Translations under genes and position numbers: made by a program
Notes under the pieces: model-generated
Told to the model about the DNA's origin: nothing
Seen by the model: the letters and a program-made list of their open reading frames with translations, nothing else
Database searches by the model: none
From: a virus
Reading direction: 5' to 3' (one strand)
Virus genome (UHGV): UHGV-1370141
DNA length: 64,000 nt
Shown here: piece after piece, positions 1 through 60,588 of the stretch
Numbering within the stretch: the stretch's first letter is position 1
How the letters are laid out: each line of letters starts with the position of its first letter

Positions 1-167
1 GGTATGGGAGACGAACTCTTTTGAGTCTGGGGAGCTTCGGCTCCCCCTACGACCCCTTATGCGTCCCGAAAAGCAAAAAAAAAACAGAAGGCTTATTAAT
101 TATGAACGGAAGATAACTACTGAACTAAGTAGGGGGTGTCGCCGCACCCCCTTTATTAGTTAGTAAC

Positions 168-383
168 TTACCTCCTTACAGGCGGTTGGTGAACATTGTG
201 GTTGTTAACCGTTTTCGGTGCCGCAACGAGGCCGAGACGAACATATTCGTCCATGCGTTGGTTAAACTGAATTTGTTTTTCACGATTTCGCATCGCGGTA
301 TTGAACAGCTGTATTTGATAATCGTTCATTTTCATTACCTTTCGTAATGTTGTAAAAACGTCAACAACTTTATGTGTTGACAC
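168..383 (-). CDS. hypothetical protein (71 aa)
   Basis: ORF track; followed by GC hairpin ~132-151. Confidence 0.4.
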   Translation of the reverse strand: MSTHKVVDVFTTLRKVMKMNDYQIQLFNTAMRNREKQIQFNQRMDEYVRLGLVAAPKTVNNHNVHQPPVRR

Positions 384-685
384 CGTACAGTAGAGACTGG
401 CGAAACAGTCTCTACTGCTTTAACTTCTCTTTGGAAAAGTTAAAGCTATGATAAGGGGTGTGTCACCACCCCTTGTTTTTTATCAGTTACTTCTCCTTTC
501 AACTATCAACTGGGTGTTTCTTGGATAAGCAACTTTGGGCTGAGTTAACGTTGGTTGCGCTATTTCACTAACCCTTCGTTGAAATTCGAGCTGTTTTACG
601 GACAACTCGTTTAACCTTTGAAACAACTGTTCATGTTTCATGAACTTTTCTCCTATGTTGAAGTTGCGAAAATAAATAAAGTGTA

Positions 686-711
686 CCCCTAATCCTTTTC
701 GGGATTAGGGG
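686..711 (-). terminator. rho-independent-type terminator hairpin
   Basis: CCCCTAATCC-TTTTC-GGGATTAGGG stem-loop just downstream of the 718 stop; A-run on plus side (T-run on transcribed strand). Confidence 0.5.
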
Positions 712-717
712 TTGCTT

Positions 718-1533
718 TTATTTAGTCGCTACGTATTGAACATGACCACATCCCTTACATTGCACATTGGCTTGCGGGAATGTTAGGCCGGTTAAAGGAA
801 CACGGATTTGATACTGTGCTCCACATTCTTCACAAACAAAATCGTGTTCTGGATAAACACGACCTTTCAATTTCTCATCCTTCCTTAACGTTTCAGCCAG
901 GAAATGCATGGCTCCTAACGCTTCATTAATCTGCTGTTCCCATTCACCGTCTAACGGATATGCGAAAGCACGAATCAACGTTTCCACCATCTCTGGCTTA
1001 TTGCTCACGTAGACGTGTTTCAATTCAAACTCTACACGTTGTAGACCGAACAGCACACGTGCAGTTACCGTTACATTATCTAACGTTTGTGAGAACACAC
1101 CGGTGTTGTCGTCTGCCTGTAATACAAATTCGGAGGCACGCTCGTAGTCAATATCACTCCACTCCACCAACCGTACGTTTTGTATTGCTTCTGCGACTTT
1201 AGGGTTACCGTAAATAGGATGTAGCAGAAAACCCAGGATAACTTCATTCATTGCTTTTAATCGCTCTAAGCGTACTACTGGGTCAGTATTAACCACGAGC
1301 AAGCGTAAAAGCCTGGACTTCAGCCAGCTAAGGCCGCAAGAAACGTTTACAGCAACCGTACAGACACTTACTTCTTTAGGCTCGAGGAGAATGAAACTCG
1401 GTTTACCTCCTACATTAGTTAGGTAAATAACAAACTCACCGCTATTAGACTTACTGATGATTTCCATCGAATCCGCTGGTACGAAATGGTCACTACTGAT
1501 GCCGGTCGGAAAATAGTCTTTGATAGTTTTCAT
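718..1533 (-). CDS. hypothetical protein with C-terminal CxxC...CxxC zinc-ribbon
   Basis: 271-aa ORF; C-terminal CEECG...CKGCG. Confidence 0.6.
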   Translation of the reverse strand: MKTIKDYFPTGISSDHFVPADSMEIISKSNSGEFVIYLTNVGGKPSFILLEPKEVSVCTVAVNVSCGLSWLKSRLLRLLVVNTDPVVRLERLKAMNEVILGFLLHPIYGNPKVAEAIQNVRLVEWSDIDYERASEFVLQADDNTGVFSQTLDNVTVTARVLFGLQRVEFELKHVYVSNKPEMVETLIRAFAYPLDGEWEQQINEALGAMHFLAETLRKDEKLKGRVYPEHDFVCEECGAQYQIRVPLTGLTFPQANVQCKGCGHVQYVATK

Positions 1534-1550
1534 TTAAAAATACTCCGATA

Positions 1551-1582
1551 GATAAAAAATTAAGGGCACCCGAAGGTGCCTT
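1551..1582 (-). terminator. terminator hairpin after lipoprotein gene
   Basis: plus-strand A-run then AAGGCACC-CGAA-GGTGCCTT. Confidence 0.5.
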
Positions 1583-1587
1583 ATACA

Positions 1588-1731
1588 TTAACCACGACCA
1601 GTGCACTGCGCAACGGAGTTACCGTTGTCGATGCAAGTGTCGTAGCCTTTATCGATATCCAGGTACAGGCAACCCAGAACAACAGCGATAACAACAGCGA
1701 AGATAGCTTTTTTGTGTTTTACAGAAATCAT
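1588..1731 (-). CDS. small lipoprotein (47 aa), not in ORF track
   Basis: MISVKHKKAIFAVVIAVVLGC...: signal peptide ending in lipobox L-G-C, two further Cys; RBS TAGGAG 7 nt upstream of ATG. Confidence 0.5.
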   Translation of the reverse strand: MISVKHKKAIFAVVIAVVLGCLYLDIDKGYDTCIDNGNSVAQCTGRG

Positions 1732-1779
1732 GATATAGCTCCTAATTAGGTATTCGATAAATGAGTATTACGTAATTCT

Positions 1780-1803
1780 CTCACCTAAGTAATATATATC
1801 TGA
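1780..1803 (-). promoter_or_regulatory. AT-rich promoter-like motif (class 1)
   Basis: transcribed strand TCAGATATATATTACTTAGGTGAG ~50 nt upstream of lipoprotein ATG; near-identical copy at 9569-9593. Confidence 0.45.
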
Positions 1804-1967
1804 AAATATTTTAATTAAAACACCCTCTAAAACGCGCTGTATCGCATTCTGACGACCTTTTATTTTTTAAACACCATTAATCGTCTTAAGGTGTAAAACA
1901 GCGTCTAAGACGCGTTTACGAGTAAATAAAAGGACATCCCGTTACCCACGAAGGTAACGGGATAATT

Positions 1968-2774
1968 TTACATCACTTGCATTTTGTTCACGACCGCAAG
2001 TTCTTCATCAGCAATACCGCTTTTCGATGAGATCGTAAAACGTTTATCGTTGATGACTTCTACGGCGTCACGAATATGCAGACCTTTCTCTTCAGTAATC
2101 GGGAGGATAGAATCGTTATCCTGCGGGCCGATTAACTGACAAGTAAACGGTACGTACGCGTTAAACGTGATATACGGACCTAGTTGCATAACCGGGAACA
2201 CTTCGTTGAAGTTGCTTGCCATTCCGCTGTCAGACGAAATTACTGCGTAACGAACAACAGCACGTAACGCAATGGTGTTTTCAGGATCGCGTGCTTCGCC
2301 AATCATCGTGAAACGGAAAGCATTGAACTCATAGTCGTCAGACTCAGCAAAATGCGTCGGAAGCAAACGTTCGATATACTTCGGATACGTTTCTGGTTCT
2401 CCTGGAACTACCGCATTCGCCAACTTCTGTGCGTAGAAATAGCAATACGCGAAACCGTACTGCGCTTCCAGTGCTCCCGTCACTACCGCAGTCGTGATTG
2501 CGTGCAAGAACAACAAATTACCCAAAGAACCTTTTTCTTCAATCGGTAATAAGCGATGGCCCTGTACTCCGTCAACCGTGTAGATAACAGAGACCGTTTT
2601 GTCAGCAGAAGACGCCATGACGAAATCTAGCTGACAATGCTCGCCGCCTGGAATAACCTTTAAGCAACGTTCTAACAGTTTGGACGGTTTAGCGAAATGT
2701 TCTTTTTCGTACTCGTCAATCTGCATTAACGTTTGACCAGACATGCGGAAAGTAAGTAAATTGCTCATTAACAA
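1968..2774 (-). CDS. hypothetical protein (268 aa)
   Basis: ORF track; RBS context AACCTAAAGGA before ATG. Confidence 0.6.
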   Translation of the reverse strand: MLMSNLLTFRMSGQTLMQIDEYEKEHFAKPSKLLERCLKVIPGGEHCQLDFVMASSADKTVSVIYTVDGVQGHRLLPIEEKGSLGNLLFLHAITTAVVTGALEAQYGFAYCYFYAQKLANAVVPGEPETYPKYIERLLPTHFAESDDYEFNAFRFTMIGEARDPENTIALRAVVRYAVISSDSGMASNFNEVFPVMQLGPYITFNAYVPFTCQLIGPQDNDSILPITEEKGLHIRDAVEVINDKRFTISSKSGIADEELAVVNKMQVM

Positions 2775-2800
2775 ATCCTTTAGGTTGCTGTCGACATAAC

Positions 2801-4120
2801 TTACGTTGTGGATGTAAAATTTTCATTAGTCAGCCACAACGTCAACTGACTAATGGTATTAAACCGTGGTGATGCCGCTGAACCACCATCAATTGCACCT
2901 TGGAAAACTTCTGCAACTAATGTTCCGTAACGCGTGTATACACCATAGTTATTCGCATAAATGTATTTTACTGCCATCCCAGGACGGAGTAAGCCGTACG
3001 TTGATGCGTTCCAGGTTGTTGCTGTTAGCGTCCCTTTCGCCGCCGCCAACTTAGACCGTTGCGGTTTATCTGTGTCCGAGAAGTGTTGGTTCGGGTCTAT
3101 TGGTGCGTTAACTACCCCACCTGGATATTGCGTCGGATCAGCCGCTGACACGAACGAATCTGACGTTGTAGCAGAAACATCGCCTGACGAGAAAGAAGAC
3201 GCACGGCCATCCAACGCACGGATAGACCCCACACGATAACCGGTACCTTGGTTTAGTGCTAGGGAGTCTTTATCTTCGAAGGTGTGGACATCACCACCAC
3301 ATATCAGGTAAATCACGTCACCGTCAATGTGGCAGGTCTTATTCAGATACGCTGCTTTCTCTTTCGGTAGGTTTATAATCACCAGCTTATTCTTCGCTGA
3401 TGAAAACTTCTTAGAGTCCCAAGGTTGGAAAATATACCAACGGTGTTTGTAGAGGAACACCCCCAGCCCTTGGCTATAAACCCCGTAACGATTCTGAAGG
3501 TAATCGAACACAGACAGGAAACTTTCCGAGTCAGGAATCAAAATATCCCGATAGGGCTGTTGCTCCTCTTCCTCGTACTCCACACCCACCAACTGACCTT
3601 CTGGCGCATCACCAGTAGGTAACGTATCTGCCAACAGTGCACGAACAACACTAAGGCCATCTGTCTCGTGATAAATCCCACCGACTTGACGGCAACGTAA
3701 GAACCACATCGACTCGTCCATCAACTCCAGGGTGACGACCGCTAACGCTTTCTGGTCAGACTCACCTAAGAACATCGTGGGCGATTCCATATCGGGATCG
3801 TGGTTGTTCACGACGATACCCCGATAGTCGAGTTTCGCAACGGTTTTCTTGTTCATTGTCCGCATTAGAATTTTCACAGACAAATCCCCGTCTGCGGAAG
3901 ACGTTAACACACGCTGTTGGCTTAACGGTATCATCACGGTAAGATGGGTGATAGTCGTTAAGTCCTGTGCGAAGTTACTGGCATGGATTATCGACAACGT
4001 TTTAAATACGCTGATAACTGTCCCACGTACCGTAATGATAGGTACGTATTCGATGGCCGGTAATCCCGCCGCTTGTGCAATATGCACGTTTGCTATGTTC
4101 TGTAACCGACCAAACGACAT
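2801..4120 (-). CDS. hypothetical protein (439 aa)
   Basis: ORF track, tightly packed in operon. Confidence 0.6.
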   Translation of the reverse strand: MSFGRLQNIANVHIAQAAGLPAIEYVPIITVRGTVISVFKTLSIIHASNFAQDLTTITHLTVMIPLSQQRVLTSSADGDLSVKILMRTMNKKTVAKLDYRGIVVNNHDPDMESPTMFLGESDQKALAVVTLELMDESMWFLRCRQVGGIYHETDGLSVVRALLADTLPTGDAPEGQLVGVEYEEEEQQPYRDILIPDSESFLSVFDYLQNRYGVYSQGLGVFLYKHRWYIFQPWDSKKFSSAKNKLVIINLPKEKAAYLNKTCHIDGDVIYLICGGDVHTFEDKDSLALNQGTGYRVGSIRALDGRASSFSSGDVSATTSDSFVSAADPTQYPGGVVNAPIDPNQHFSDTDKPQRSKLAAAKGTLTATTWNASTYGLLRPGMAVKYIYANNYGVYTRYGTLVAEVFQGAIDGGSAASPRFNTISQLTLWLTNENFTSTT

Positions 4121-4659
4121 TACAGTATACCTCCCCTTTTACGATAAATCGCTTCTATACGTCGCATTATCGTATCGTTAAAACGGTGTTGCTGCGTTTC
4201 TAAACGCACCTCTCCAAATAACGCTTGTACCGACGTCGCCATCGTCACTTCCGGTTTCTTAAAATAACCGTATCGGTTAGCAACGGGAAAGAGTTTACAT
4301 GCTAAGGCGTTGAACTGTCGGAGTCCTTCTATCGGCACTTTACGCGTCGTCAGATGAGGCTCTTGCATGTAATGTAACCAATCTGCTAGGTGTTCCATGA
4401 TATACCCGTAAACGATAATACCATCTTTCGGATCGTGAACATCTAACGCAGCACCGGTCTCTGCATACACCGCCACTTCAAATGGCCGCATATACACCGT
4501 TTTCTTGTTCAACAAAATCGCTCGTGCTTTCTTTTCGTCATCCGGCAAGAACAATCCGTGTTCTTGCGACATATACTGGGTAATGGTTGTCCATTCAGGA
4601 ACCCGCCATGCTACCCACTTATGGAACAGCATAAATGCTGCACTACGTTTCACTGACAC
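4120..4659 (-). CDS. hypothetical protein (179 aa)
   Basis: ORF track; abuts neighbours. Confidence 0.55.
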   Translation of the reverse strand: MSVKRSAAFMLFHKWVAWRVPEWTTITQYMSQEHGLFLPDDEKKARAILLNKKTVYMRPFEVAVYAETGAALDVHDPKDGIIVYGYIMEHLADWLHYMQEPHLTTRKVPIEGLRQFNALACKLFPVANRYGYFKKPEVTMATSVQALFGEVRLETQQHRFNDTIMRRIEAIYRKRGGIL

Positions 4660-4660
4660 A

Positions 4661-6031
4661 TTAATCCCTCGAATATCTTAAAAGCAGATACACCATCGGA
4701 ATGTAATAGAACTGTGCGTCTTTCGGGAGCTTATAAACTTCCTCAAACAGTTTTAACGCAATTACCGACGGTAGCGGACGTTTATGCAGGTACAAGTACA
4801 AGCCGTATTCCAACAACGAACTGTAAGAACCGTCGTAGAACGTCTCGCTTAGCAAATACGGTTTAAAGGACAGCGGTAGGAAGGCCGGAATAGACTCCCC
4901 TTCGTTCCCACGATAGTTTTCAACTTCAACCGGTTCAAACGGTTTCCATTCTGGCCACTGACCGGGGAAACGTTGCGCCATCCCGTAACCTGGCTTTAAC
5001 TCTTCCGTAAAGAACCGGGTATCAGAGATCAACGACCACGTTACCGAGTTACGATGTTGCATCGTACGGAAAGTTTTCGTTTGCCACACCGTGCTGTCAC
5101 GTTTGTAATCTGCTAAGAACGTTGGCGACTGTTGCATCAGCGCTGTCCACACCGTTTCAATGTCTTCCACGTTCATCGGTGGATGCGGATAAATCTGAAT
5201 ATCCTTACCTACGGTACGTAACCCCAGCGCGCGCACAAACAGCGCTAAGAACACGTCGTAGTAAGCACGGCTACGCAAACCGTCGCTGTGACGATCGTGT
5301 GGGAACAACAGCGTGGCCGTTTCACCGTCGTAGAAACGTTTCACATACGTCTGTTCAATGTCTTCAATCGCGTCAACGACTTCCAGGAACGCACGGTACT
5401 CTTTCGGTGTGAGAAGTGTATCACCACCTGTCCAGGCACGCTCTGCAACGTAGTAGTATTCACGTACGGTACAACGACGAATCGTTTCTGCGGTTTCTGG
5501 GTCAACTTCGAAGAGTAACGTGTATTCGATGTTGTACGTCGCGACTTTGTTATTCGACATACGCACAACGTTGGTAACGTTAAACAACGCGAAACGACCG
5601 TCACCGATAGGGGCGATGAAAAAGCAACCCTCGTTAGGGATAATCGAATTTGCAATTGTTGCAGCGCCTGACATGCTGAACGTTTTGTTCGTGGTGTCTT
5701 GGCTTCGGTCGAGCGGTGTCGTTACACGCAGCTCCAACCCGATAATTTTCTCCACCTGTTGGTCAGGTGTAAGCACTTTCGAATCGAAAAACTTCTTGGC
5801 GTCGTTTCTTCCTTTCAGGAAGTTAAAGAAGTCCACCGTCCACGCTGACCCTTCCAGATACTTCATTAAGTATTGCTTTGGAATACGGTCTAAATCAGTA
5901 ACGGTTGTACGTGTGGGTTGCGTAACGATATTGGTGGTTTCTTTTACACCGTCCTGTGGTTTATTTAATTCGGGGATAGGCCGGTCTACGGGTTCAAATG
6001 TTGACGGCTTATCACGCTTCGCTTTGAGCAT
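4661..6031 (-). CDS. hypothetical protein (456 aa)
   Basis: ORF track. Confidence 0.6.
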   Translation of the reverse strand: MLKAKRDKPSTFEPVDRPIPELNKPQDGVKETTNIVTQPTRTTVTDLDRIPKQYLMKYLEGSAWTVDFFNFLKGRNDAKKFFDSKVLTPDQQVEKIIGLELRVTTPLDRSQDTTNKTFSMSGAATIANSIIPNEGCFFIAPIGDGRFALFNVTNVVRMSNNKVATYNIEYTLLFEVDPETAETIRRCTVREYYYVAERAWTGGDTLLTPKEYRAFLEVVDAIEDIEQTYVKRFYDGETATLLFPHDRHSDGLRSRAYYDVFLALFVRALGLRTVGKDIQIYPHPPMNVEDIETVWTALMQQSPTFLADYKRDSTVWQTKTFRTMQHRNSVTWSLISDTRFFTEELKPGYGMAQRFPGQWPEWKPFEPVEVENYRGNEGESIPAFLPLSFKPYLLSETFYDGSYSSLLEYGLYLYLHKRPLPSVIALKLFEEVYKLPKDAQFYYIPMVYLLLRYSRD

Positions 6032-7520
6032 TCTCTGTCCCTCGCATGGTAATCACAGTCGAGTTCAGCACCGTCAGCAAGACGCGGGCTTCTACGTTAG
6101 GAATCAGTTTATTAATGTCGTCGACAACACTGGGCGGTAATACGGGTTTATCCCACCACCAGTCCGGTACATCCCATTTCGGGAATAACCATTCTATCAA
6201 CACCTTCGCGGCTTTAGGATAAAGCTGAAGTGGCCACAGGTTCATCCCTCGCCAGTCGAACATCACCGATTCGGTTAGGTAGTAACTCTTGTTAACTTTT
6301 AAATCACGTCCTTTCAAAAAGAAGGTATTGTCTTCCCAATGATAGAAACGCGGTTCGATGATTTGGCCTTCTTCGAACAGCTCCACACGGAAGACGCCTG
6401 TCTGCCCGGTAGGGTCTATTGCACGACAGTGTTCGATATACGGCAACAAATCTGGATTCCACTCGTACGGTAAATCCTCCACAGATAACACTTTCGGTGA
6501 GCTCATGTTGTCTTCATCGAATACAACGTCTGTTCCGAAAACGTGTAAGAGTTTATCTTTTAACGGGGAATGTGTACGGTGGAACTGTTCTGTCGGTGAC
6601 AGTAGATACGGTAAACGAATATACTGACGGGTTTCGTTAATCCACCACGTCGAATCGAGATTCTTTTGTTGCGGATGACGATACACCAGTTCTTCGTTAG
6701 ACACCCACGGTGGATCTATCTCTGGCCAGTATTCATCAGGAAGCGGTGTCTGGTTGATGATATACGGATACGAAACCACAATCTCTTCGGGACGTTGATA
6801 AGAGAAACGCACGACGAATGTAGCTTCCCAGTGGTTCTCGTCTTTATCCCAGGCAGGTGTCTGTACGTCGTATACAGTCTCTAAGCGAGTAGGTGCATAG
6901 CGAACCGCAATAGATTCCTGTCCACCGGCAACGTTAGCAGCGCGAAACACGTCGGGTGTAAAGTACGCCTTGAGATAGGCTTTAAAATCATCAAACGTCG
7001 GTACACGAGTCCCTGCGGCGACATAACAGGCATTCAACAGTTTCAGTGCTGGCTTCGGAATATAATAAAACGCTTCTGACTCGGTCATTGTCGAATAGCG
7101 ACCCATGTCCACTAACGAGTCTAAACGGTTTGTCCAGCGCAATAACTCATCGCGAGAAGCACTGGTACGTCGTAACGTCACCGTTACGTTATACATCGTT
7201 CTAACGGGCCAGGCACGCACCTGATCGACGGAGTTTTCAAAAAAGTACGGTTCGGCTTGCTGACCAACCTGGCGATTGATTCTAGCCCACTCATCGCGTT
7301 CTTCTTCTACTTCAACATACACCTTTTCAGGCGAGCTGTACTCAACTTCTGTACCGTCGCCTAACGTGGAATCGGGTTGATGTGCGCTATTGAATTCATC
7401 AAGGAAAACAACCGCTGCTTTATCAATACCTGATTCATTAAGTACACGTTGTATAACGCCATCGATTATCGGTTTGCGAATGGTCGCGTCTAACGACGGA
7501 ATTTCAAAATACTGTTGCAT
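6012..7520 (-). CDS. hypothetical protein (502 aa)
   Basis: ORF track. Confidence 0.6.
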   Translation of the reverse strand: MQQYFEIPSLDATIRKPIIDGVIQRVLNESGIDKAAVVFLDEFNSAHQPDSTLGDGTEVEYSSPEKVYVEVEEERDEWARINRQVGQQAEPYFFENSVDQVRAWPVRTMYNVTVTLRRTSASRDELLRWTNRLDSLVDMGRYSTMTESEAFYYIPKPALKLLNACYVAAGTRVPTFDDFKAYLKAYFTPDVFRAANVAGGQESIAVRYAPTRLETVYDVQTPAWDKDENHWEATFVVRFSYQRPEEIVVSYPYIINQTPLPDEYWPEIDPPWVSNEELVYRHPQQKNLDSTWWINETRQYIRLPYLLSPTEQFHRTHSPLKDKLLHVFGTDVVFDEDNMSSPKVLSVEDLPYEWNPDLLPYIEHCRAIDPTGQTGVFRVELFEEGQIIEPRFYHWEDNTFFLKGRDLKVNKSYYLTESVMFDWRGMNLWPLQLYPKAAKVLIEWLFPKWDVPDWWWDKPVLPPSVVDDINKLIPNVEARVLLTVLNSTVITMRGTENAQSEA

Positions 7521-7609
7521 TGGCTTGTTCCTTCGTTATAGTCATATCACAGGCGCGAAATGAAAAAAAAATAAAAGGGAACCGAAGTCCCCTTTTATGT
7601 TTATCTGTG

Positions 7610-7945
7610 CTATAACAGATAAGGTATACCCTCAAAGATAACCTCATCGTTAGCAAAGCCAACAGACGCTTCTTCACCGCCAGATGTGGTCGCCCAGATC
7701 TCCGCCGCAAAACGATGATTATTAATCAACAATCCGCGTTTGTTTTCGAACAACACGACCAAGACCAGCTTGATGCTTTTCTCGTAGTGTAAACGACGTA
7801 GAAACGCGTATTTTACGGGAGTACGGTTCCAAGTGAAACTGGCTATCTTCCCTTTCGCGACGCTGCCTAAAAAGAGTTTTTCTAAGGTTACAAACTCAGT
7901 TCCCATCTCTTTTCCAAATCTGATAATGCCAACGCGGAATACCAC
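7610..7945 (-). CDS. hypothetical protein (start probably internal, ~7906)
   Basis: ORF track; 5' end overlaps the DHFR gene end, internal Met likely true start. Confidence 0.4.
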   Translation of the reverse strand: MVFRVGIIRFGKEMGTEFVTLEKLFLGSVAKGKIASFTWNRTPVKYAFLRRLHYEKSIKLVLVVLFENKRGLLINNHRFAAEIWATTSGGEEASVGFANDEVIFEGIPYLL

Positions 7946-8432
7946 TTTCGGGTTTCGAATAATGTGTCAGGTTGTAATTCAGTCTGAAGACATCGCGATC
8001 GATTTCAGGGAAGAACGCATCCGCACCCTCTACCTTAACCTCAACACGAGACAAGTAAATCTTATCCGCATAAGGCATCGCCTGTTGGTAAATCTCTGCG
8101 CCGCCAATAATAAAGATTTCTTTCGGGTAATCTTTCTCCACGACCTCTTTCTTGAGAAACTCAATAACCGACCCCATGTCACCTTTAAGGTTCAACACAC
8201 CGTCGATGTCAGGAACACCTCCTTGTTTTCGTGTTAAGATAACATGGTGACGGTTCGGTAAAGGTTTATACCCCAACGATTCCCACGTCTTACGTCCCAT
8301 CACGATAACCTTACCTGACGTAAGTGCTTTGAAGTTCTTCAAGTCATCGGGAATATGCCAAGGGAGTTTATTGTCTTTCCCTATTTCATTATTAAGTCCC
8401 GCTGCTGCAATCAACGATACAGTAACTGTCAT
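7896..8432 (-). CDS. folA: dihydrofolate reductase
   Basis: SLIAAAGLNNEIGKDNKLPWHIPDDL...VIVMGRKTWESLG matches the DHFR N-terminal signature (recalled E. coli FolA / T4 Frd pattern). Confidence 0.85.
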   Translation of the reverse strand: MTVTVSLIAAAGLNNEIGKDNKLPWHIPDDLKNFKALTSGKVIVMGRKTWESLGYKPLPNRHHVILTRKQGGVPDIDGVLNLKGDMGSVIEFLKKEVVEKDYPKEIFIIGGAEIYQQAMPYADKIYLSRVEVKVEGADAFFPEIDRDVFRLNYNLTHYSKPESGIPRWHYQIWKRDGN

Positions 8433-8734
8433 TTCACAACTCCCATCGACTCTCTTAATTTCCGAATAAATGCTTTACGTGTAAGCTGACTGGTTTTGTA
8501 ACCGTCAGCAAGATGCCAAACGGTTACTTTTCGTCCAGCCGCCTCTAAATGAAGATAATTAATCTCACCTGTCCCCGTTTTGATTGGTTCGGCAAGCGGT
8601 ACCATCAACTCACCGTTCCACTCAGGCTCGTTTAGCTTAGGGATAACTAAACGTAATTCGATACGTTTAACCTGGTACTCGGTTTCACACTCTTCAAAAC
8701 GTATCACGTCTATTCGGTCGGCTCTCGGATTCAT
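8429..8734 (-). CDS. hypothetical protein (101 aa)
   Basis: ORF track; overlaps neighbours by 4 nt. Confidence 0.5.
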   Translation of the reverse strand: MNPRADRIDVIRFEECETEYQVKRIELRLVIPKLNEPEWNGELMVPLAEPIKTGTGEINYLHLEAAGRKVTVWHLADGYKTSQLTRKAFIRKLRESMGVVK

Positions 8735-8735
8735 C

Positions 8736-9287
8736 TTAACCTTCCATGTATTGTCTTATTCCGTACTCTGGTTCAATGTTTGAAACAGTTGAAGAAGGCA
8801 CCACGGACAACTGGTTATAGATTTTCAGTAAGTCGTCACGCAGCAGTTTTTGTTCGATATCCAGTTTGTAGGAAGCCAATTCTTTCGTTAACGGCGCAGT
8901 TAACACAACACGGGTCTGGTATCCGTCGAACGGTTGCGGGACACGGAGACCACGAGCACGATAGAAAGATTCTAACTTCGAGTAGTCGCGAATATAAGTT
9001 TTGGTTAGAATCGAATACCCTGCATCAAGCATGAACTTATAGAACGGTTTAAGTTCAATAAAACGGTTATACTCGAGGTGTTCTGGAATATAGAACTGAT
9101 AGTTACCGTACTCAAGAACTGACAACGCCGAACCGTTGCAATGGCTGTTGTTAACGAATATCGCTAAGCCAATCATAACTGGACGCGGAATATTCAGAAC
9201 TTTCTCACCGAACTGAACACGAAAGATTTCTTGCTGAATAGAAGACTCGGATACAACTTTAGCGTCTAAGATATTAAATTTGTTCAT
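8736..9287 (-). CDS. hypothetical protein (183 aa)
   Basis: ORF track; RBS CCTTTAGGAGAATAGAA-ATG; no ThyA/ThyX motifs seen. Confidence 0.55.
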   Translation of the reverse strand: MNKFNILDAKVVSESSIQQEIFRVQFGEKVLNIPRPVMIGLAIFVNNSHCNGSALSVLEYGNYQFYIPEHLEYNRFIELKPFYKFMLDAGYSILTKTYIRDYSKLESFYRARGLRVPQPFDGYQTRVVLTAPLTKELASYKLDIEQKLLRDDLLKIYNQLSVVPSSTVSNIEPEYGIRQYMEG

Positions 9288-9341
9288 TTCTATTCTCCTA
9301 AAGGTCGAAAAAATAAACGCCCTCTAGAGAGGGCCAATCAG

Positions 9342-9545
9342 TTATAGCGCTTTAATAAAACGTTTTACTGCCTGAACCTCTGGGCACTGAGAAACTTCTT
9401 TTCGCTTGTGCGCTATGATGGGTGTCACTAAGCAAACGACATCAGCGGTTGGTGTTTCCACAGTGACCACCATATCTTCGGTTGTCTGGAATTCTTTCTT
9501 GGATTGGAAGCGGTTCATGATAATTCTCCTAAACGTAATAAACAT
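9342..9545 (-). CDS. hypothetical protein (67 aa)
   Basis: ORF track; 5' leader hairpin GAGATTAC-ACA-GTAATCTC directly upstream, no obvious SD. Confidence 0.45.
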   Translation of the reverse strand: MFITFRRIIMNRFQSKKEFQTTEDMVVTVETPTADVVCLVTPIIAHKRKEVSQCPEVQAVKRFIKAL

Positions 9546-9568
9546 GTCGTAAGAGATTACTGTGTAAT

Positions 9569-9593
9569 CTCACTAAGGTAATATATATCTGAG
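9569..9593 (-). promoter_or_regulatory. AT-rich promoter-like motif (class 1)
   Basis: CTCAGATATATATTACCTTAGTGAG on transcribed strand, ~25 nt upstream of 9545 start. Confidence 0.45.
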
Positions 9594-9606
9594 TTTATTT
9601 TTAATC

Positions 9607-9655
9607 GAAAAAAAAAAGAAAAGGGAGAACCACCCCATTACAGGGTGGTTCTCTT
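9607..9655 (-). terminator. terminator hairpin
   Basis: A-run then GAGAACCACC-loop-GGTGGTTCTC, downstream of 9672 stop. Confidence 0.55.
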
Positions 9656-9671
9656 ACTAAACAATCAGAGA

Positions 9672-10937
9672 TTATTTAGATTTTTCGTAAGCAGCGATAC
9701 CTGCGGAGATATAACCGTTCAGACCGCCAGCCAGGTGTTTCTGAGTAGAAGCAATAGCTTTCTCTTGCAGAGACAGAGCCTGGTTAATACTGGTGATGTA
9801 ACGACGCGCGGTACGCACGTTTTCGGTCAGTTCCGGTTTTTCATCGATCTTGACTTTGTCGATTTCTTTCAGCAGCTTATCGATGCTGTCTTCGAAAGAC
9901 TTACGTGCGCTTTCAACTTTACGATAATCCTGAACGTTCTTCTCAATCTGTTTACCCACTTCGTTGAAGAAGGCATTGATTTTAGCCAGTTCGCCAACAG
10001 ACGGAGTTTTCACGCTGGTTTCAACGCTGTTTTCAGATTCGACGAAAGTAGAGGAGAAACCGCCTTCGTTATCGTACTCGGTCTTCACAGCCATGTTGCC
10101 GAGTTTGAAGTTCTTAAGATTGTCTTGTTTAGCCAGTTCGCTGAAATCAGCTTTCAGGCTGTCAATCTTAGCACCGTTACCTTTAGTAACATCTTCAACC
10201 AGGCCAGCGGCTTTAGAGGCCATAGAAGGCACTTTAGAGCTGTAGAAAGAGGAAACTTGGCTCAGGATGCCTTTCAGTTTCGCGACGTCGTCACCAACGA
10301 ATTTACCGTCGATGGACAGAGATTTAATGAAACCGCCAGAGATTTCATCTTTCTTCTGTTTGCCCAGCTTACGGATGATCGCGTCGTTTTTCTTCGCACG
10401 TGCCTGGATAGATTTACCCTGGTTGTGGAATTTCAGCCAACGATCTTTGATCTTACGACCCTGTTCTTTCAGCCAATCAAGGATACGTTTCATGAAGGCT
10501 TTAATGTCTTCCCACAGGGATTCACGAGCAACCTGACGGCGGTTACGAGAACCGTAGGATTCGTGAGCAACGGAAGAACGGTGTTCGAAGTTCCAGCGAG
10601 AACGGATGGATTCCTGAGCAACGTCCAGCGCTTTAGCAGCGTCGTCCGGCATGTCTTCTTCAGCGTCCATCGGCTCTTCGCCGTCTTCACCGGCATCTTC
10701 GCCGTCAGCAGCAGCCTGAGCTTCGTCCAGGACTTCCAGCTGAGCATCGGTTTCGTCGCCGTCTTCGGCCAGCAGCTCTGCGTCTGCGTCCATCGCTTCG
10801 ATCGGTTTGGTGTCATGCTCGATATCGGCCAGAGTACCTTCTACAGATTCTGCTGGCAGTTCGATGCCGTCTGGAACTACAGTAGAAGTAGACTCCATAG
10901 ACTCACGAGCAATTTTGTTTTTGTAGAAATTCGCCAT
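9672..10937 (-). CDS. acidic protein, paralog A (421 aa)
   Basis: conserved termini shared with 11020..12291 (MANF.K...ARESME / GKQKKDEISGGFI / NGY..AGI.AYEKSK); D/E-rich N-terminal third. Confidence 0.7.
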   Translation of the reverse strand: MANFYKNKIARESMESTSTVVPDGIELPAESVEGTLADIEHDTKPIEAMDADAELLAEDGDETDAQLEVLDEAQAAADGEDAGEDGEEPMDAEEDMPDDAAKALDVAQESIRSRWNFEHRSSVAHESYGSRNRRQVARESLWEDIKAFMKRILDWLKEQGRKIKDRWLKFHNQGKSIQARAKKNDAIIRKLGKQKKDEISGGFIKSLSIDGKFVGDDVAKLKGILSQVSSFYSSKVPSMASKAAGLVEDVTKGNGAKIDSLKADFSELAKQDNLKNFKLGNMAVKTEYDNEGGFSSTFVESENSVETSVKTPSVGELAKINAFFNEVGKQIEKNVQDYRKVESARKSFEDSIDKLLKEIDKVKIDEKPELTENVRTARRYITSINQALSLQEKAIASTQKHLAGGLNGYISAGIAAYEKSK

Positions 10938-11019
10938 TTTAAGCTTTTCCTCTAAGGGGAACGCGTTGTTCCCCTGATGATTTATTTCAAGAACTGTACG
11001 GAACTACGAATCTAAATGA

Positions 11020-12291
11020 TTATTTAGATTTTTCGTAAGCACCGATACCAGCACCCAGGTAGCCGTTCAGACCGCTAATAACGGTGTTAGCAACGTAGCT
11101 AACGGCGCGGTTCAGGGTCTGGTAGTTCTTCACAGACCAATCAGCAGCTTGACGTGCATTACGCAGGCCATCCCACTTGCTCTGGTCTTTTTCGGTATTC
11201 AGTGCGGTAGCAGCTTTCTCAGCAGCCTGTTGCAGCTTCACGATTTCAGCGTCATAAGCACGGAAATCTTTCAGTACAGCTTCGAAGCCTTTACCGATTG
11301 CTTCCAGAGCAGAAGCAGCGCCAGCCATTTCAGAAACGGACGGAGTTTTCACGTCTTTATCTTCAGACGCGTCACCGGTGCTCATGAATGCAATTGCAGT
11401 GAACTTGTGGCCGCCAGCCAGTTCTTTAGTACCAGACTGAACGTATGCGTTGCCCGGCAGAGCCAGCAGTTTGGACGCATCACCTTTTTCAAAGTTCGGC
11501 AGAGTGTGCAGTTTAGAAGCCGCCTTACCAAACAGTTCTACCGGCTGATCGCCACGCATTGCTTTGAATGCGTCGTCGTCACCTTTGCTCACAGCGGTCA
11601 CAGCTTCACCAGCTTGTTTTTCCAGAACACTGATGGAACCTTTAGCTTTGCCAGCGGTAACTTCTTTCGCGATAGCGATAGAGCCAGCAGCATCGAATTT
11701 ACCTTCGATAGACAGCTTGGTGATAAAGCCACCAGAGATTTCATCTTTCTTCTGTTTGCCCAGCTTACGCAGCATTTCCTGATATTTCTTCGCACGTTTC
11801 TGTGCGGTCTTACCGACGTTGAAATATTTCAGTTTCAGGTCTTTGATCTTCGCAATCACTTCTTTACAGAACTGAATGAAACGATCGTAAAGATCTTTCA
11901 GGGTTTCTTTCCAGCCTTCCTGCGCAGCAGCAGTCATGCCACGGCCACGGCGATAGGATTCACGAGCCAGTTTGGTACGTTCCAGGCACCAACGACGTGC
12001 GATGGATTCCTGGGCCACTTCGTGCAGGGCAACCGCTTCTTCCGGCATTTCTTCACCGTTAGCAACGGCTTCTTCCGCCTGATCGATAGCGTCTTCAGTA
12101 CGCTCAGTATCGGCGGCCAGAGTTTCACCGTCAGTTTCCAGCTGATCCAGTTCGCCATCCATAGAGGCTACTTCTGCAAGCTGGACGTCCAGGTTCTCTT
12201 CTGCCGGTTCAACGTTGCTGATACCGTCGATTACTTCATCGGCCGCTTCCATTGATTCACGAGCGGCGCGAGTTTTTGCGAAATTTGCCAT
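11020..12291 (-). CDS. acidic protein, paralog B (423 aa)
   Basis: tandem paralog of 9672..10937. Confidence 0.7.
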   Translation of the reverse strand: MANFAKTRAARESMEAADEVIDGISNVEPAEENLDVQLAEVASMDGELDQLETDGETLAADTERTEDAIDQAEEAVANGEEMPEEAVALHEVAQESIARRWCLERTKLARESYRRGRGMTAAAQEGWKETLKDLYDRFIQFCKEVIAKIKDLKLKYFNVGKTAQKRAKKYQEMLRKLGKQKKDEISGGFITKLSIEGKFDAAGSIAIAKEVTAGKAKGSISVLEKQAGEAVTAVSKGDDDAFKAMRGDQPVELFGKAASKLHTLPNFEKGDASKLLALPGNAYVQSGTKELAGGHKFTAIAFMSTGDASEDKDVKTPSVSEMAGAASALEAIGKGFEAVLKDFRAYDAEIVKLQQAAEKAATALNTEKDQSKWDGLRNARQAADWSVKNYQTLNRAVSYVANTVISGLNGYLGAGIGAYEKSK

Positions 12292-36799: not shown

Positions 36800-36828
36800 T
36801 TTAATGCTCCTTTAGGTTGATTCGGTAG

Positions 36829-36844
36829 GATAATATCTATCTCA
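36829..36844 (-). promoter_or_regulatory. AT-rich promoter-like motif (class 2)
   Basis: plus-strand ATAATATCTATCTC ~30 nt upstream of the 36799 start; same core at 58186, 60572, 50513. Confidence 0.4.
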
Positions 36845-40359: not shown

Positions 40360-42021
40360 TTACTGATTAAACCACGCCACTTCTTCACATTTCTTCCTGT
40401 TCTGAATTAACAGGAATTCTGCTAACATGTTCTGAAGTCGTGGGTGTGGTGTGTAGCCTAACATCACTTCTCCACTCCGAAGCATTCTTGCTGCTTCAGG
40501 TGTTGCCCTGAGATTGAAGTTAAACGGCGCAATATGTTCACGTACCAACAACGTCAAAGACGTCTTCAATGTTGACTGTTCGTAGATATTGCGATTGGTA
40601 CGGTATGCCTGAGGATAAAATCTATCCGATTTTATTTTGATCTCATTATCAATAGGTTCGATTGGATAACCCCCATTGTTGGGATCTAAAACCATTTCAC
40701 AGCTTAGCAACTGTGCAATCTCATGCATTCCGTAGTAGATATAAATCGCTTGTGCGATCCCCATTGCATTCTTAAACGCAGCAGCGTCAATGTCCTTATA
40801 GGTTCTGCGGTCAGCAAAGCGATGCAGTGCGGCTGCAACCAACCACTCGTACAGTTCGTAGAACGGATATTGATGATTCAGGTGAATAGAATCAATCAGT
40901 ACCTTAGCATCCGCAGGAGCGATATCGATCCCTAAGGAACGAACCACACGACGATAATCGTTGAAAAACTCTTGGGTACGAACAAACTCTTTCATCGGCG
41001 CTTTAGAGCGCGCTTGAACCAAGTCTATCGCACAAGTTTTCCCTTTCTCACCGTTAAACATAATCTTTTCAGGATGCGCTTTTAAGATGACGTTCTGTGA
41101 CGAAATCTTTCCTGCAAATCCTGTTTCGATTTCCTGCTTGATATTAAAGTACATCCCTGCAACGATGTTGTTCTCCACCATCGTACCTGGAGGTAACTCT
41201 GCGCCGATGAGTTTCATGGCGATTAAGCGAATCACCGCGAATGCCATGATGTACTCTTCCACCATATCCGTACCGTAACCACAGATAGAGGCCAGCACCG
41301 TTAAGTTCGCACTGTTCGGTCCTTTATTGCCACCGTCCTGTACTTTCGAAATCACCGACACTAAGAAGTCCCGCAATTTACTGATTGCAGGTAGTTGTGC
41401 TATCTCGGTGTCGTAAAGCAATTCCATGCAATGGGTTAAGTTATAAACGCTTTTCCGCTTGGAGTCCACAGCGGCGCGTGTTGTTGGGAAAGCATCCATG
41501 ACCAAGAATACCGGAATGAACGGTTTTACCATCAACGACAGTATGACCAGTTCGTAGTAGTCTTGTACGATATACGTCATCTCTTTCGGATAGTTAGATG
41601 ACATTTCTTCGTAAGTTTCGTGGACGTTTTGAGGAATCCACACGGAGCTTTGTGGATAGAGTTGGCGGAATCTGTCCGCGTGGTGGAATTTGGCAATTTG
41701 TGCAACAATCTCTGGCGCATGTTTACGAATCGTTTCGGGTTCTTCATTACCCAGCATTTCTAACTCTTCGTACGCCGAGAATAATTCTTCCTTTTCCTCC
41801 GACGTTAACGTTGACCAATAACGTTCGATTTCCATGAACATAATTTTGTCATGGGTAACCACTTTGCCGGAGCTATCGCGTACGTCTGGCACATTCGCAT
41901 CTTTGCGTCCATTACGGAATCCGTTAAACCCTACTTCCTTATCACCGTAACTAATAATGAGACGGTCGCGATTTTTCTCAATACGCATTTTAAAATCTCC
42001 AGGGATAACATAGTCGACCAC
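40360..42021 (-). CDS. hypothetical protein (553 aa)
   Basis: ORF track; GTG start. Confidence 0.6.
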   Translation of the reverse strand: MVDYVIPGDFKMRIEKNRDRLIISYGDKEVGFNGFRNGRKDANVPDVRDSSGKVVTHDKIMFMEIERYWSTLTSEEKEELFSAYEELEMLGNEEPETIRKHAPEIVAQIAKFHHADRFRQLYPQSSVWIPQNVHETYEEMSSNYPKEMTYIVQDYYELVILSLMVKPFIPVFLVMDAFPTTRAAVDSKRKSVYNLTHCMELLYDTEIAQLPAISKLRDFLVSVISKVQDGGNKGPNSANLTVLASICGYGTDMVEEYIMAFAVIRLIAMKLIGAELPPGTMVENNIVAGMYFNIKQEIETGFAGKISSQNVILKAHPEKIMFNGEKGKTCAIDLVQARSKAPMKEFVRTQEFFNDYRRVVRSLGIDIAPADAKVLIDSIHLNHQYPFYELYEWLVAAALHRFADRRTYKDIDAAAFKNAMGIAQAIYIYYGMHEIAQLLSCEMVLDPNNGGYPIEPIDNEIKIKSDRFYPQAYRTNRNIYEQSTLKTSLTLLVREHIAPFNFNLRATPEAARMLRSGEVMLGYTPHPRLQNMLAEFLLIQNRKKCEEVAWFNQ

Positions 42022-42121
42022 AAAGATAAAATCTATCTAAGATAACTTCGACTGTGTTCTGCACACATACACGATAAGAAGCCCCAGGATTCCCTGGGGC
42101 TGAATTATTGTTTTACGTTAA

Positions 42122-46498: not shown

Positions 46499-48456
46499 CT
46501 ACCCCGCCATTAAGATTAATTCTGAGTCGATGGCGATACCCGCCTCCAGATCTTCTTCGGTATCGCGTAAGAAACGGTTTTCCATGCTGATAAGCTCATT
46601 GTGTAACACCATGCTGCTAGACACTTCGTCTACGTTTGTGCTGGACATAAATCCGTTATCTGGGCGATAAGCCAGCGCCAAATCCATCTCCGTGGTATCG
46701 ACTAAAAGTCTAACCTGTAATTGGTCGCCGTCGAAATCCTGTTTGTCCACTCCATTCCTTTTGGAGCAGGTGTGCAATGACACCCTCCCATGTTTTCACA
46801 TGGGCACAGACTATATCATAACCGTAGGTATTGCTACCCGTAGGTCTCCCCCACTTCGCCGCTAAACTAAGCAGCTACTCTACTCGGTTTTACCCTTTCG
46901 ATAGTCGTTGAACGATTTTCATCGCTGCTGGTTATCCATTATCACAACCCTTAGCATTATTGGTTAGCATAGGCTATCTTACGAATTGTTTCTGACTTTC
47001 GCCACCCTGTCGGGATCGTAAGCTTTAGGAGTTTCCAGCAATTCGAGGGATACGCACTAGAGGTTTCCCGTCTAGTGGGCCAAATTTTAGCATTCGGAGC
47101 TTTGATGACGCGATCGGAGATACGTAACGAACACTGTGTAACATCAGGGTTAACAGCTGAGATAAATAATGTCTGAATAGACAACTGTACAAGCGTCGGG
47201 TTTCGTAGCGCTGATATCATCAGGCCGTAACCGCCACGAGACTCCTTAATAAGTTCGTTGATAATTTCATGAACCAACGGTACGTACTGCATTGATGCAA
47301 ATGCAATAACACGTTCACACTGCCGTGGTGTGAAGTTCCGTCGACCGAGTTTGTTTTCAATAGCTACAGATTCTAACGTCACTAGCCAACGCCAAGGTGC
47401 AATAACCTTCATAGCGTCATGCGGTTCTGAGATTGGAGAGATTGTTACACGACCACCCCACGGGATGTGTGTTGAACCTAACTTGGCACGATAGAATCCA
47501 GGTTTACCTTCCATCACCTCCTGACGATGGTCAATATAGAAGTACGCTAACTGGCGATTTGCTTTTAATGCGCGACTAATAATGAAATGGGTTGGGATGC
47601 GTCGTGCATTAGTATAAAGTAACGCGATGTTCTTAACCGCGTCTATTGCACCGGTATAAACAGGATCGATAAAGATACCCTGACGTCGTTCCTCCGTAAC
47701 GATCAGTTTGGGTGAAATGATTGGAAGATGAACCGGAAAGAAAGTGTGTGATTGTTCTTCGAAGAACTTTTTCCACTCTAAGCGAGTACGTTCGCTCTCA
47801 TATCGGTTATTTTTCGTTGGTGGATAAATTTCTTTCCAGACTTCAGGAGAAGTTAAGATATTGAATATTGTTCGATGGTGGTCAATAAAATTCCTAATGC
47901 CGCGTGGAACTTGATACTCGCTAAAGATACGTTTGATTATTCGGGATCGAGTACCTTCGTCTTTATCAGGTTTATAGCACGGATCTAACATCCACATCAA
48001 TAAATCAGAACCACGTTCTACGGTCACTTTGTTTCGGTTAAACTTCTTAAGTTTAGAACCGAAGAAAGCGTTAAACATCGACCAGAATCGTGGGTTAATA
48101 AAGTTGCCTATTTCCTCCGGGGCACGAATCCAGACTTCTGAAACAATACGATGTTCTGTCACTACATAGCCGCAGGTAGGACATCGCATACCGAGATTAT
48201 ATCGATGAACGATAGGTGCTTCACAATCAATACTACAAATGGGTGCCGAATTTAGCGTCTCGTCGACTGTCCGGTTCTGTAAGATTCGGTTAATCAACTC
48301 TGACGTCTCAATGGTGTCTTTATATTTCGCAACATCATTGATAATCATCGGCGGTTTATAGCCCTTTTCCTCCGCCTCTTTGAAAGCGTCACGTAACATT
48401 TTATCGTGACTGATTAATCGCCCTGATACACCGAAGTATTGTAATCTGTCTTTCAC
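46499..48456 (-). CDS. RNA polymerase beta'-like subunit, N-terminal module; intron-interrupted (exon 1 ~47150..48456, exon 2 46499..~46783)
   Basis: exon 1: Zn finger CSIDC...CPTCG, GKPGFYRAKLG...GGRVTISP, ISALRNPTLVQLSIQTLF; exon 2: HTCSKRNGVDKQDFDGDQ ... FMSSTNV. Confidence 0.65.
46784..47150 (-). other. group I self-splicing intron (no internal ORF)
   Basis: minus-strand GTTCAACGACTA (R-like) and GATATAGTCTG (S-like) P7 elements, P9-like hairpin before exon 2, frame change between exons, no RBS; boundaries approximate. Confidence 0.65.
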
Positions 48457-50383: not shown

Positions 50384-50430
50384 TTTATTTATCCTTTAAA
50401 GGTTTAATACAATTGTAGTGTTGGTTCACG

Positions 50431-50546
50431 TAGATAACATATACCTGAGATATTTTAGAATGCGTCTAGAACACACATAACTCAAAATAGTTAACCACCG
50501 AACCATCACATAGATAATATCATTCTCAGATATTTTTCAATGTGAG
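50431..50546 (+). promoter_or_regulatory. two tandem ~35-bp promoter-like direct repeats in a divergent intergenic region
   Basis: TAGATAACATATACCTGAGATATTTTAGAATGCG and TAGATAATATCATTCTCAGATATTTTTCAATGTGAG. Confidence 0.4.
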
Positions 50547-50589
50547 TAGAATGTGACCGTTTCCTATGTGTAACCCCAAGGAGTCAGTC

Positions 50590-58185: not shown

Positions 58186-58200
58186 GAGATAATATCTATA
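58186..58200 (-). promoter_or_regulatory. AT-rich promoter-like motif (class 2 variant)
   Basis: plus-strand GAGATAATATCTATA ~35 nt upstream of the corrected start. Confidence 0.4.
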
Positions 58201-58318
58201 CGAAAAAAGTTCGAGTATAGTGCGCACAGGAAGGGCATAGAGTGTATTTTTTAGTAGTGGTGTAGTTACCCATTACCCGATCCTATGAACCGTTTTACAG
58301 AGCTAACAGGAGCACACA

Positions 58319-60563: not shown

Positions 60564-60588
60564 ACTCACTAAAATAATATCTATCTCT
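60564..60588 (-). promoter_or_regulatory. AT-rich promoter-like motif (class 2)
   Basis: plus-strand ACTCACTAAAATAATATCTATCTCT ~45 nt upstream of 60520 start. Confidence 0.4.

Follow-up and report, generated by a model that had tools for sequence, protein, structure and literature searches.

What is the role of two nearly identical AT-rich sequences, each lying just ahead of a small gene on the minus strand of the virus genome UHGV-1370141? They occur in the 64,000-nucleotide (nt) stretch analysed here, which is called the window throughout, and were picked out by an earlier reading made without database searches (the sequence-only reading), which likened them to the AT-rich early consensus of phiKZ-like phages. 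As set out below, each element is probably a phage-specific promoter of the phiKZ-like 'early' type, and the enzyme that it recruits is most likely the injected multisubunit virion RNA polymerase (RNAP). This would make it a known kind of promoter and not a new kind of element; what is modestly novel is a class-specific hairpin at base +1 of the transcript, together with a cassette-like exchange of the cargo behind the promoter.

The class-1 motif and its conservation

The two elements are real, and share an exact 15-mer, TCAGATATATATTAC, present in two copies in the window, at 1789-1803 and 9578-9592 on the minus strand. The 24-mers that contain it (1780-1803, TCAGATATATATTACTTAGGTGAG; 9569-9592, TCAGATATATATTACCTTAGTGAG; both minus strand) are identical at 21/24 positions in an ungapped comparison, with three substitutions and zero indels. 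The bracketed bases by which the sequence-only reading had allowed for indels are unnecessary, and its end coordinate of 9593 for the second element is one base too long. Both sites show the same order of parts: a GC-rich terminator hairpin with a T-run, an A/T tract, the 15-mer, six variable bases and GAG, and from there onward an inverted repeat within a leader that is 51 or 53 nt long and runs up to AGGAG-N7-ATG; after it come a single small open reading frame (ORF) and a terminator.

The likeness to phiKZ is borne out by phiKZ DNA. In the first 50 kb of that genome the 8-nt core TATATTAC occurs seven times on the plus (coding) strand and not once on the minus strand. All seven copies are intergenic, 42-80 nt ahead of a gene start, and all seven are followed by N6-G; the gene PHIKZ054, which is among those preceded by a copy, has a published early promoter (PMC8244752). 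The mapped early consensus of AR9 is AAATATATATTAT-(6N)-G+1, and the starts of phiKZ and phiR1-37 likewise lie 6 nt past the element (PMC5312081). A review states that all RNAP-encoding jumbo phages carry a highly conserved AT-rich motif of about 10 nt centred near -10, which lies ahead of the early operons and is read by the virion RNAP (PMC7598289). The window copies of TATATTAC, at -14 to -7 of the predicted start, fit this description. A G after N6, the predicted start base, is present at both window sites as well as at the 7/7 phiKZ sites, although sites entered the wider family set through the adjacent [GA]TGA. Since the window motif has the phiKZ core, spacer and G, the N6-G rule predicts starts at G1782 and G9571. 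A literature search for TATATTAC returned unrelated papers only.

The bare repeat carries little statistical weight. In the window, nine pairs of exact direct repeats reach 15 nt or more, where shuffled sequences have about two, so that a repeated 15-mer is not rare, and TATATTAC by itself is not enriched in the window. The significance of the two copies lies instead in their shared position, in their rank with a matrix of flanking sequence, and in the strand and intergenic bias of the family. The log-odds matrix was built from the flanks of foreign sites only, using 22 nt upstream and 10 nt downstream with the core excluded. The window sites score 32.0 and 31.5, against a mean of -34.4 (standard deviation 10.3), and rank 1 and 2 among 127,906 positions. 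Ranks 3-5 are taken by sites with the core AGATAGATATTAT, which belong to a second class. Class 1 has the form TATATATTAC and class 2 the form TAGATATTAT, both with N6-G, and the flanks are common to the two.

An exact scan of viral contigs for the 15-mer found at least 116 stretches. At least 42 non-window sites have it in the same context, nearly all of them on contigs longer than 100 kb and most on contigs of 205-246 kb; the genomes include, among the matches listed, phiEaH2, SPN3US, CR5-like and Phobos-like phages. In order, the shared context runs from a terminator with its T-run through GATTAAAAATAATT, the core, YTAGGT and GA to an inverted repeat of variable sequence, with a Shine-Dalgarno sequence (SD) and start codon about 50 nt further on. 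Among the matches listed, the terminator and T-run stand immediately upstream of the motif in most relatives, as at both window sites, the median 5' untranslated region (UTR) is 51 nt, and the G and A at the predicted start positions are invariant. This last feature is not independent evidence, because the class-1 set was chosen by the exact core plus the adjacent [GA]TGA. The RNAP beta proteins of phages that share the 15-mer are 54-76% identical to the window protein, and an invariant 15-mer with constant N6-G spacing across genera whose polymerases have diverged to 54% identity argues for recognition by a protein, and not for mere homology.

The sequence-only reading had named a lack of enrichment upstream of genes across the genome as what would refute it; such enrichment was found, in phiEaH2 as well as in the window. 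The family pattern AGATAKATATTAY-N6-G, allowing up to 2 mismatches, has 26 matches in phiEaH2, of which 25 are on the plus (gene) strand and 21 in gaps between annotated coding sequences; the intergenic enrichment, calculated on a deliberately crude ORF map, has P = 4e-9. With up to 3 mismatches, the 15-mer itself matches phiEaH2 15 times on the plus strand and once on the minus strand. In the window the family pattern matches ten times, always on the minus strand, which carries 52/63 of the ORFs, and 9/10 matches are intergenic (P = 7e-9).

Read as promoters, the two sites would work as follows. Recognition would rest on the A/T tract, which lies at about -35 to -22, and on the core TCAGATATATATTAC, which spans -21 to -7. 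The first transcribed base would be the conserved G seven bases past the core (1782 and 9571, minus strand), giving an RNA that opens GA(G/A) and, in class 1, folds at once into a hairpin with base +1 in its first pair. The rest of the leader, of about 51 nt, would bear a strong SD, and each window copy would drive one small gene bounded by terminators, encoding a 47-residue (47-aa) membrane peptide at site 1 and a 58-aa orphan at site 2. The features of the two sites are as follows.

Site 1 (slot 1)
1935-1964, minus: terminator-like hairpin, 13-bp stem then TCCTTTTATT, ending the upstream 268-aa gene
1901-1913, minus: small second terminator-like hairpin, GCGTCTTAGACGC followed by TGTTTTA, upstream of the site
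1804-1816, minus: A/T-rich upstream element AATTAAAATATTT at about -34 to -22, fitting the family consensus GATTAAAAATAATT
1789-1803, minus: class-1 core TCAGATATATATTAC, with its TATATTAC part at approximately -14 to -7
1782, minus: predicted transcription start G, 7th base past the core, by the N6-G rule of AR9 and phiKZ
1763-1782, minus: leader inverted repeat, a weak and imperfect 5' hairpin containing ATTACGTAAT
1732-1782, minus: predicted 51-nt 5' UTR, with SD AGGAG at 1739-1743
1588-1731, minus: gene for a 47-aa small membrane or secreted protein (phrog_8574)
1565-1580, minus: terminator-like hairpin closing the one-gene unit

Site 2 (slot 2)
9625-9653, minus: terminator-like hairpin with a long T-run, ending the upstream internal-head-protein gene
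9593-9606, minus: A/T-rich upstream element GATTAAAAATAAAC
9578-9592, minus: class-1 core TCAGATATATATTAC
9571, minus: predicted transcription start G, placed as at site 1; the hairpin begins at the same base
9553-9571, minus: 5'-terminal hairpin GAGAUUAC-ACA-GUAAUCUC, 8 bp from +1 (inverted repeat GAGATTAC-ACA-GTAATCTC)
9519-9571, minus: predicted 53-nt 5' UTR, with SD AGGAG at 9526-9530
9342-9518, minus: 58-aa cargo ORF
9319-9334, minus: terminator-like hairpin closing the unit, which is the right-hand breakpoint of the cargo swap

It is worth adding that the 130-nt spacer upstream of site 1 contains a 21-nt direct repeat (1816-1836 and 1894-1914), with 86% identity between copies 78 nt apart. 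One copy is the small hairpin GCGTCTTAGACGC with TGTTTTA, and the other (1816-1836) is degenerate; the degenerate copy is retained at slot 1 in SPN3US- and phiEaH2-like relatives. The copies may be vestiges of earlier cassette insertions.

The leader and its hairpin

The inverted repeat that the sequence-only reading had described in both leaders is present, as ATTACGTAAT at 1767-1776 in site 1 and at 9553-9571 in site 2. The region from +1 to +32 was folded for 44 class-1 sites, namely 42 foreign ones and the two in the window; family counts in this section are among the matches listed. The minimum free energy (MFE) hairpin begins at +1 in 32/44 sites, with a mean of -5.9 kcal/mol against -2.0 for shuffled sequences. 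For the non-window sites alone, it begins at +1 in 31/42 and within +3 in 35/42. In unrelated hits to the same 15-mer, which served as a control, a start at +1 was seen in 13/66, with a mean MFE of -2.7 kcal/mol. The site 2 hairpin is strong (-8.2 kcal/mol, z = -6.1), and none of 200 shuffles folds as well. Relative to the predicted start base, a stem beginning 0-2 nt from the 5' end is found clearly at site 2 and weakly at site 1, where the inverted repeat is conserved in two relatives (L092 and L098).

The hairpin is specific to class 1. In phiEaH2 it is found at 8/8 class-1 sites, four of which are near-consensus and lie outside the exact search, with a mean of -6.6 against -2.1 kcal/mol for shuffled sequences. 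At phiEaH2 class-2 sites a +1 hairpin is found in 1/12, and the mean is -2.35 against -2.94 kcal/mol in shuffles. In addition, class 2 has short leaders, in which the SD follows +1 by about 10-25 nt.

It is the pairing, and not one particular stem sequence, that recurs in class 1. The 5' arms that form stems of at least 6 bp comprise 14 different sequences, and at ranks 3-8 several types of pair occur. In an arm-swap test, a 5' arm reaches at least 6 bp with its own 3' arm in 55% of cases, against 25% for swapped arms. RNAalifold found no consensus structure in 35 leaders aligned with MAFFT, as these differ in loop length and stem sequence; it was replaced by per-sequence folding, a register histogram and the arm swap. 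Rfam has no family matching either leader, and a hairpin at +1 is not described in the accessible papers on jumbo-phage transcription.

Both RppH and RNase E require or prefer single-stranded 5' ends (PMC3997798), and a stem from +1 is therefore most simply read as an mRNA stabiliser: the base-paired 5' end would protect the message from 5'-end-dependent decay by RppH and RNase E.

A further block, (T)CGAC(C/T)AT, stands between the hairpin and the SD, 10-20 nt ahead of the latter, in many promoter-proximal leaders of relatives, including phiEaH2 (L117-L121). In phiEaH2, 18/50 plus-strand matches to CGAC(C/T)AT precede an SD and start codon. It was left out of the model, having a single window occurrence in an SD context (42010-42016).

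Cargo genes, probable class-2 promoters and phage polymerases

The window is collinear, in reverse orientation, with phiEaH2 at about 166-236 kb, with protein identity typically of 55-80%, and it encodes three RNAP beta/beta'-like proteins (split subunits). The collinearity and the three RNAP genes together identify it as a phiKZ-related jumbo phage of the SPN3US/phiEaH2 group. Judged by RNAP beta, its closest described relatives are the Erwinia phages Asesino and Stratton, at about 76% amino acid identity. In phiEaH2, the promoters at 233325 and 223773 hold the positions syntenic with site 1 and site 2 respectively.

The 47-aa family behind site 1 retains its C-terminus CIDNGNSVAQCTGRG in Erwinia and Salmonella jumbo phages. 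The C-terminal CIDNGNSVA(Q/M)CTGRG is the sole conserved part, while the N-terminal hydrophobic segment varies. The label of lipoprotein given to this gene in the sequence-only reading is doubtful and was not retained: V-L-G-C is not conserved, and the SPN3US homologue has a plain hydrophobic helix without a lipobox cysteine. The product is more likely to be a small membrane-anchored peptide with a periplasmic Cys-X9-Cys tail. For the second gene, which had been given as 9342..9545, the likelier start is the SD-preceded ATG at 9518, giving 58 aa, because a start at 9545 would put the SD inside the coding sequence. The 58-aa protein has zero tblastn matches among 50,697 phage records.

The contents of the two slots differ between relatives. 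At slot 1, the 47-aa family follows the promoter immediately in SPN3US, and in phiEaH2 three extra genes lie between the promoter and its 47-aa homologue. At slot 2, a close relative (L026) matches the window at 87.6% identity over the upstream gene, the terminator, the promoter, the hairpin, the SD and the ATG, as far as 9510; there the similarity stops, returning at the terminator (9333) with 72% identity. The cargoes in between are unrelated, with 58 aa in the window and 213 aa in L026. The idea that the 58-aa protein is a truncated homologue of the 213-218 aa slot-2 protein was rejected (BLASTP E = 2.9). Breakpoints of this kind come from one slot, in the comparison of the window with L026. 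More widely, the first ORFs behind the 44 class-1 sites fall into 32 protein clusters among the matches listed, mostly hypothetical and of 47-250 aa. The terminator, promoter and leader on one side and the far terminator on the other may thus serve as homology arms for cargo swaps between relatives. It can tentatively be suggested, though we consider it rather unlikely as a whole, that class-1 sites are portable modules (terminator, virion-RNAP promoter, +1 hairpin and SD) acting as homology arms by which early accessory genes are traded, with the +1 hairpin tagging the earliest mRNAs.

Which polymerase would read these promoters? The 746-aa RNAP beta of the window is the orthologue of SPN3US gp34, and the adjoining gene is the orthologue of gp35 (beta'). 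The virion RNAP of SPN3US consists of gp42, 218, 240, 241 and 244 (PMC5694885); gp34 and gp35 fall outside this set, and so belong to the non-virion enzyme. The virion RNAP subunit set was not located in the window. The genes of the non-virion enzyme are preceded by a class-2 promoter, and the class-2 sites of the window are the following.

36823-36842, minus: class-2 element AGATAGATATTAT-CCTACC-G, its motif at 36830-36842, immediately ahead of the genes for non-virion RNAP beta/beta', without a hairpin
42026-42038, minus: class-2 site
50434-50446, minus: class-2 site
50514-50526, minus: class-2 site
58189-58201, minus: class-2 site
60574-60586, minus: class-2 site
50508-50520, plus: class-2-like site

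These sites are intergenic and co-oriented with the genes, and their leaders are short and unstructured. The divergent intergenic region 50384-50565 has two tandem minus-strand class-2-like sites and one plus-strand site, which overlaps the distal minus-strand site in a near-palindromic arrangement.

The class-2 motif ahead of the non-virion RNAP genes is kept in the window, phiEaH2 and SPN3US, which represent three genera. No polymerase can transcribe its own genes until it has been made, and class 2 precedes exactly these genes; this argues that the motif family, class 1 included, is read by the virion RNAP. In phiKZ and AR9 the virion enzyme does transcribe the non-virion RNAP genes, and development is independent of the host RNAP (PMC7598289). 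From sequence, then, the whole family is most likely read by the injected virion polymerase, although 'early' and 'virion RNAP' are labels that we infer.

Three further features of the window were noted. A group I catalytic intron (46787-47099, minus strand; Rfam RF00028, 63.7 bits, full-length model) splits an RNAP beta-like gene, whose two parts, at 46957-48456 and 46499-46783, both map to one phiEaH2 gene, at 184412-186013. A tRNA-Ile gene with anticodon AAT, called by ARAGORN and Rfam, lies at 62040-62116 on the minus strand. Finally, 63600-63850 is rich in C/G runs, and after it come about 130 nt that consist almost wholly of A/T, with many overlapping TATATA-type repeats; the whole region (63600-63965) corresponds to a part of phiEaH2, at about 165-171 kb, where annotation is poor and gaps are frequent, and might represent an origin, terminus or hypervariable region.

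Alternative explanations and known systems

Several observations weigh against the assignment of the class-1 elements to the virion RNAP, or against the importance of the hairpin. Virion genes, as a rule late ones, predominate in the block around both sites, and only two class-1 copies occur in 64 kb. The selection by exact core and [GA]TGA inflates the apparent conservation at those positions, and many of the 44 class-1 sites, among the matches listed, are orthologues and not independent events. The site 1 hairpin is weak (-1.5 kcal/mol, z = -1) and not significant alone, which means that the hairpin is not obligatory. Early leaders in phiKZ mostly do without one (2/7 have it), which places the hairpin outside the known definition of the family. 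Swapped arms still pair fairly well among the matches listed, because most stems begin GAGA. That the hairpin would shield mRNAs from 5'-end-dependent decay is something we infer purely. In addition, transcript 5' ends, a time course, or rifampicin and chloramphenicol data for SPN3US- or phiEaH2-like phages were not found in the literature within reach.

The position among virion-protein genes (internal head protein, structural proteins) could be taken to mean that the elements are middle or late promoters, used by the non-virion RNAP or by a factor-modified phage polymerase, and the existence of two classes with different leaders could mean two enzymes or two expression times. However, the known non-virion promoters look unlike them, being TATG in phiKZ and AACA-N6-T(A/G) in AR9 (PMC7598289), the class-1 core is the early core defined by experiment for phiKZ and AR9, and the sister class-2 motif, with the same flanks, precedes the non-virion RNAP genes themselves; a middle or late role is accordingly unlikely. 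A host sigma-70 promoter with an AT-rich -10 hexamer, expressing moron-like genes, would account for TATATT, which fits TATAAT at 5/6 positions, for the UP-like A/T-rich tract upstream, and for the moron-like units of promoter, one gene and terminator. Yet a consensus scan of 1-12000 (-35 and -10 hexamers with at least 9/12 matches, 16-18 nt spacer) finds no site at 1780-1830 or 9570-9620, and sigma-70 sites are not enriched in these first 12 kb (11 against 15.6 expected). No TTGACA-like hexamer is kept at the right spacing in the family consensus, the invariant positions reach far past the -10 hexamer to include N6-G, and the motif is common to phiKZ and AR9, which are independent of the host RNAP (PMC7598289), all of which makes a host promoter very improbable.

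The cargo exchange invites a different explanation, that the sequence has been conserved chiefly for its use as a recombination or cassette-boundary repeat, with promoter activity secondary or absent. The replacement breakpoints fall exactly at the ATG and the terminator, 32 cargo families stand behind one cassette among the matches listed, vestigial terminator copies lie upstream of site 1, and the promoter-early stem-loops (PeSLs) of other phages are terminator/promoter composites that mediate swaps (PMC4122927). But PeSLs are themselves functional early promoters, so that recombination complements the promoter reading; the exact 15-mer and its N6-G spacing across genera with 54% identical polymerases point to protein recognition, and the strand bias follows gene direction. 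We consider it highly unlikely that recombination is the main reason for conservation. As for the inverted repeat of the leader, it spans +1 to +20, the classic position of an operator, which might bind a dimeric regulator, and among the matches listed a stretch of 3-5 T comes after many stems, as would suit a premature terminator or attenuator; premature termination in 5' UTRs has been reported in phiKZ (PMC10914365). Against an operator, the 14 different arms with pairing kept, again among the matches listed, are hard to reconcile with one sequence-specific binding protein, and stems that begin at the predicted first RNA base have no obvious meaning for an operator. Against an attenuator, the stems are AT-rich and weak beside the genome's real terminators, and a terminator scan calls none of them. 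Either role is therefore quite unlikely, and the phiKZ-like early promoter is the explanation that we prefer.

If this is right, the motif offers a sequence-level handle on the earliest transcription in SPN3US/phiEaH2-like jumbo phages, which include candidates for phage therapy against Salmonella and Erwinia. Together with the N6-G rule it would predict starts to the base, and flag small genes that are probably expressed first and are candidates for roles in host take-over, superinfection exclusion or anti-defence. The contrast between hairpin-bearing and hairpin-less classes provides a testable hypothesis on differential mRNA fate, and the clean swap of cargo between conserved regulatory arms provides one on how accessory genes move among jumbo phages. 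At about 75 nt, promoter and leader together form a compact module that may also serve in the engineering of such phages. Were the portable-module proposal true, the SPN3US, phiEaH2 and CR5 groups would have a phage-polymerase counterpart of the PeSLs of T4. Were the hairpin a tag, it might protect the earliest mRNAs from host 5'-end decay or RNA-targeting defences, or mark them for handling or for export from the early infection compartment, and it would set class-1 mRNAs apart from the hairpin-less class-2 transcripts for core functions such as the non-virion polymerase.

Among known systems, phage N4 also combines an injected virion polymerase with an inverted repeat at the promoter. The N4 virion RNAP is a single-subunit enzyme that reads a DNA hairpin upstream of +1, whereas here the repeat is downstream of +1, variable in sequence, and accompanied by a conserved linear motif; the resemblance is superficial. 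The stabiliser hairpins of the Escherichia coli ompA and papA leaders and of the T7 gene 10 leader are closer, since they have a stem at or 1-2 nt from the RNA 5' end, as is predicted here. In T7, too, the 5' arm is made by the initial transcribed sequence, itself conserved, of a promoter for a phage RNAP. The class-1 stems differ in being short and AT-rich, with energies of -4 to -10 kcal/mol. A stem at or near the 5' end is the geometry that blocks RppH and 5'-end-dependent attack by RNase E (PMC3997798).

The PeSLs of T4-like phages are composite terminator/early-promoter motifs that mediate modular gene shuffling (PMC2839356, PMC4122927), and the class-1 units resemble them in that repeats of a terminator hairpin and an early promoter flank small variable ORFs and are the apparent points of exchange for unrelated cargo. 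However, PeSL promoters are host sigma-70 early promoters, and the promoter here is probably specific to a phage polymerase; the PeSL stem-loop is the upstream terminator, and here there is an extra hairpin downstream of the start. Because promoter type and phage lineage differ, PeSLs are an analogue and not a group to which the class-1 elements belong.

The closest likeness is to the mapped promoters of jumbo phages. AR9 agrees at 11/13 core positions, with an equal 6-nt spacer and a G at the position predicted here as the start; it differs in that its DNA contains uracil and its core ends in T, which is closer to class 2 (ATATTAT) than to class 1. With the early promoters of phiKZ (Ceyssens et al. 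2014 per PMC7598289, PMC8244752) the class-1 sites share the TATATTAC core, the G at the 7th base, the upstream A/T tract, an intergenic position co-oriented with the gene, and a genome with two split multisubunit RNAPs. They differ from phiKZ in that the core is lengthened to TCAGATATATATTAC and is invariant over several genera, and in that the +1 hairpin, present in only 2/7 phiKZ leaders, is here the rule.

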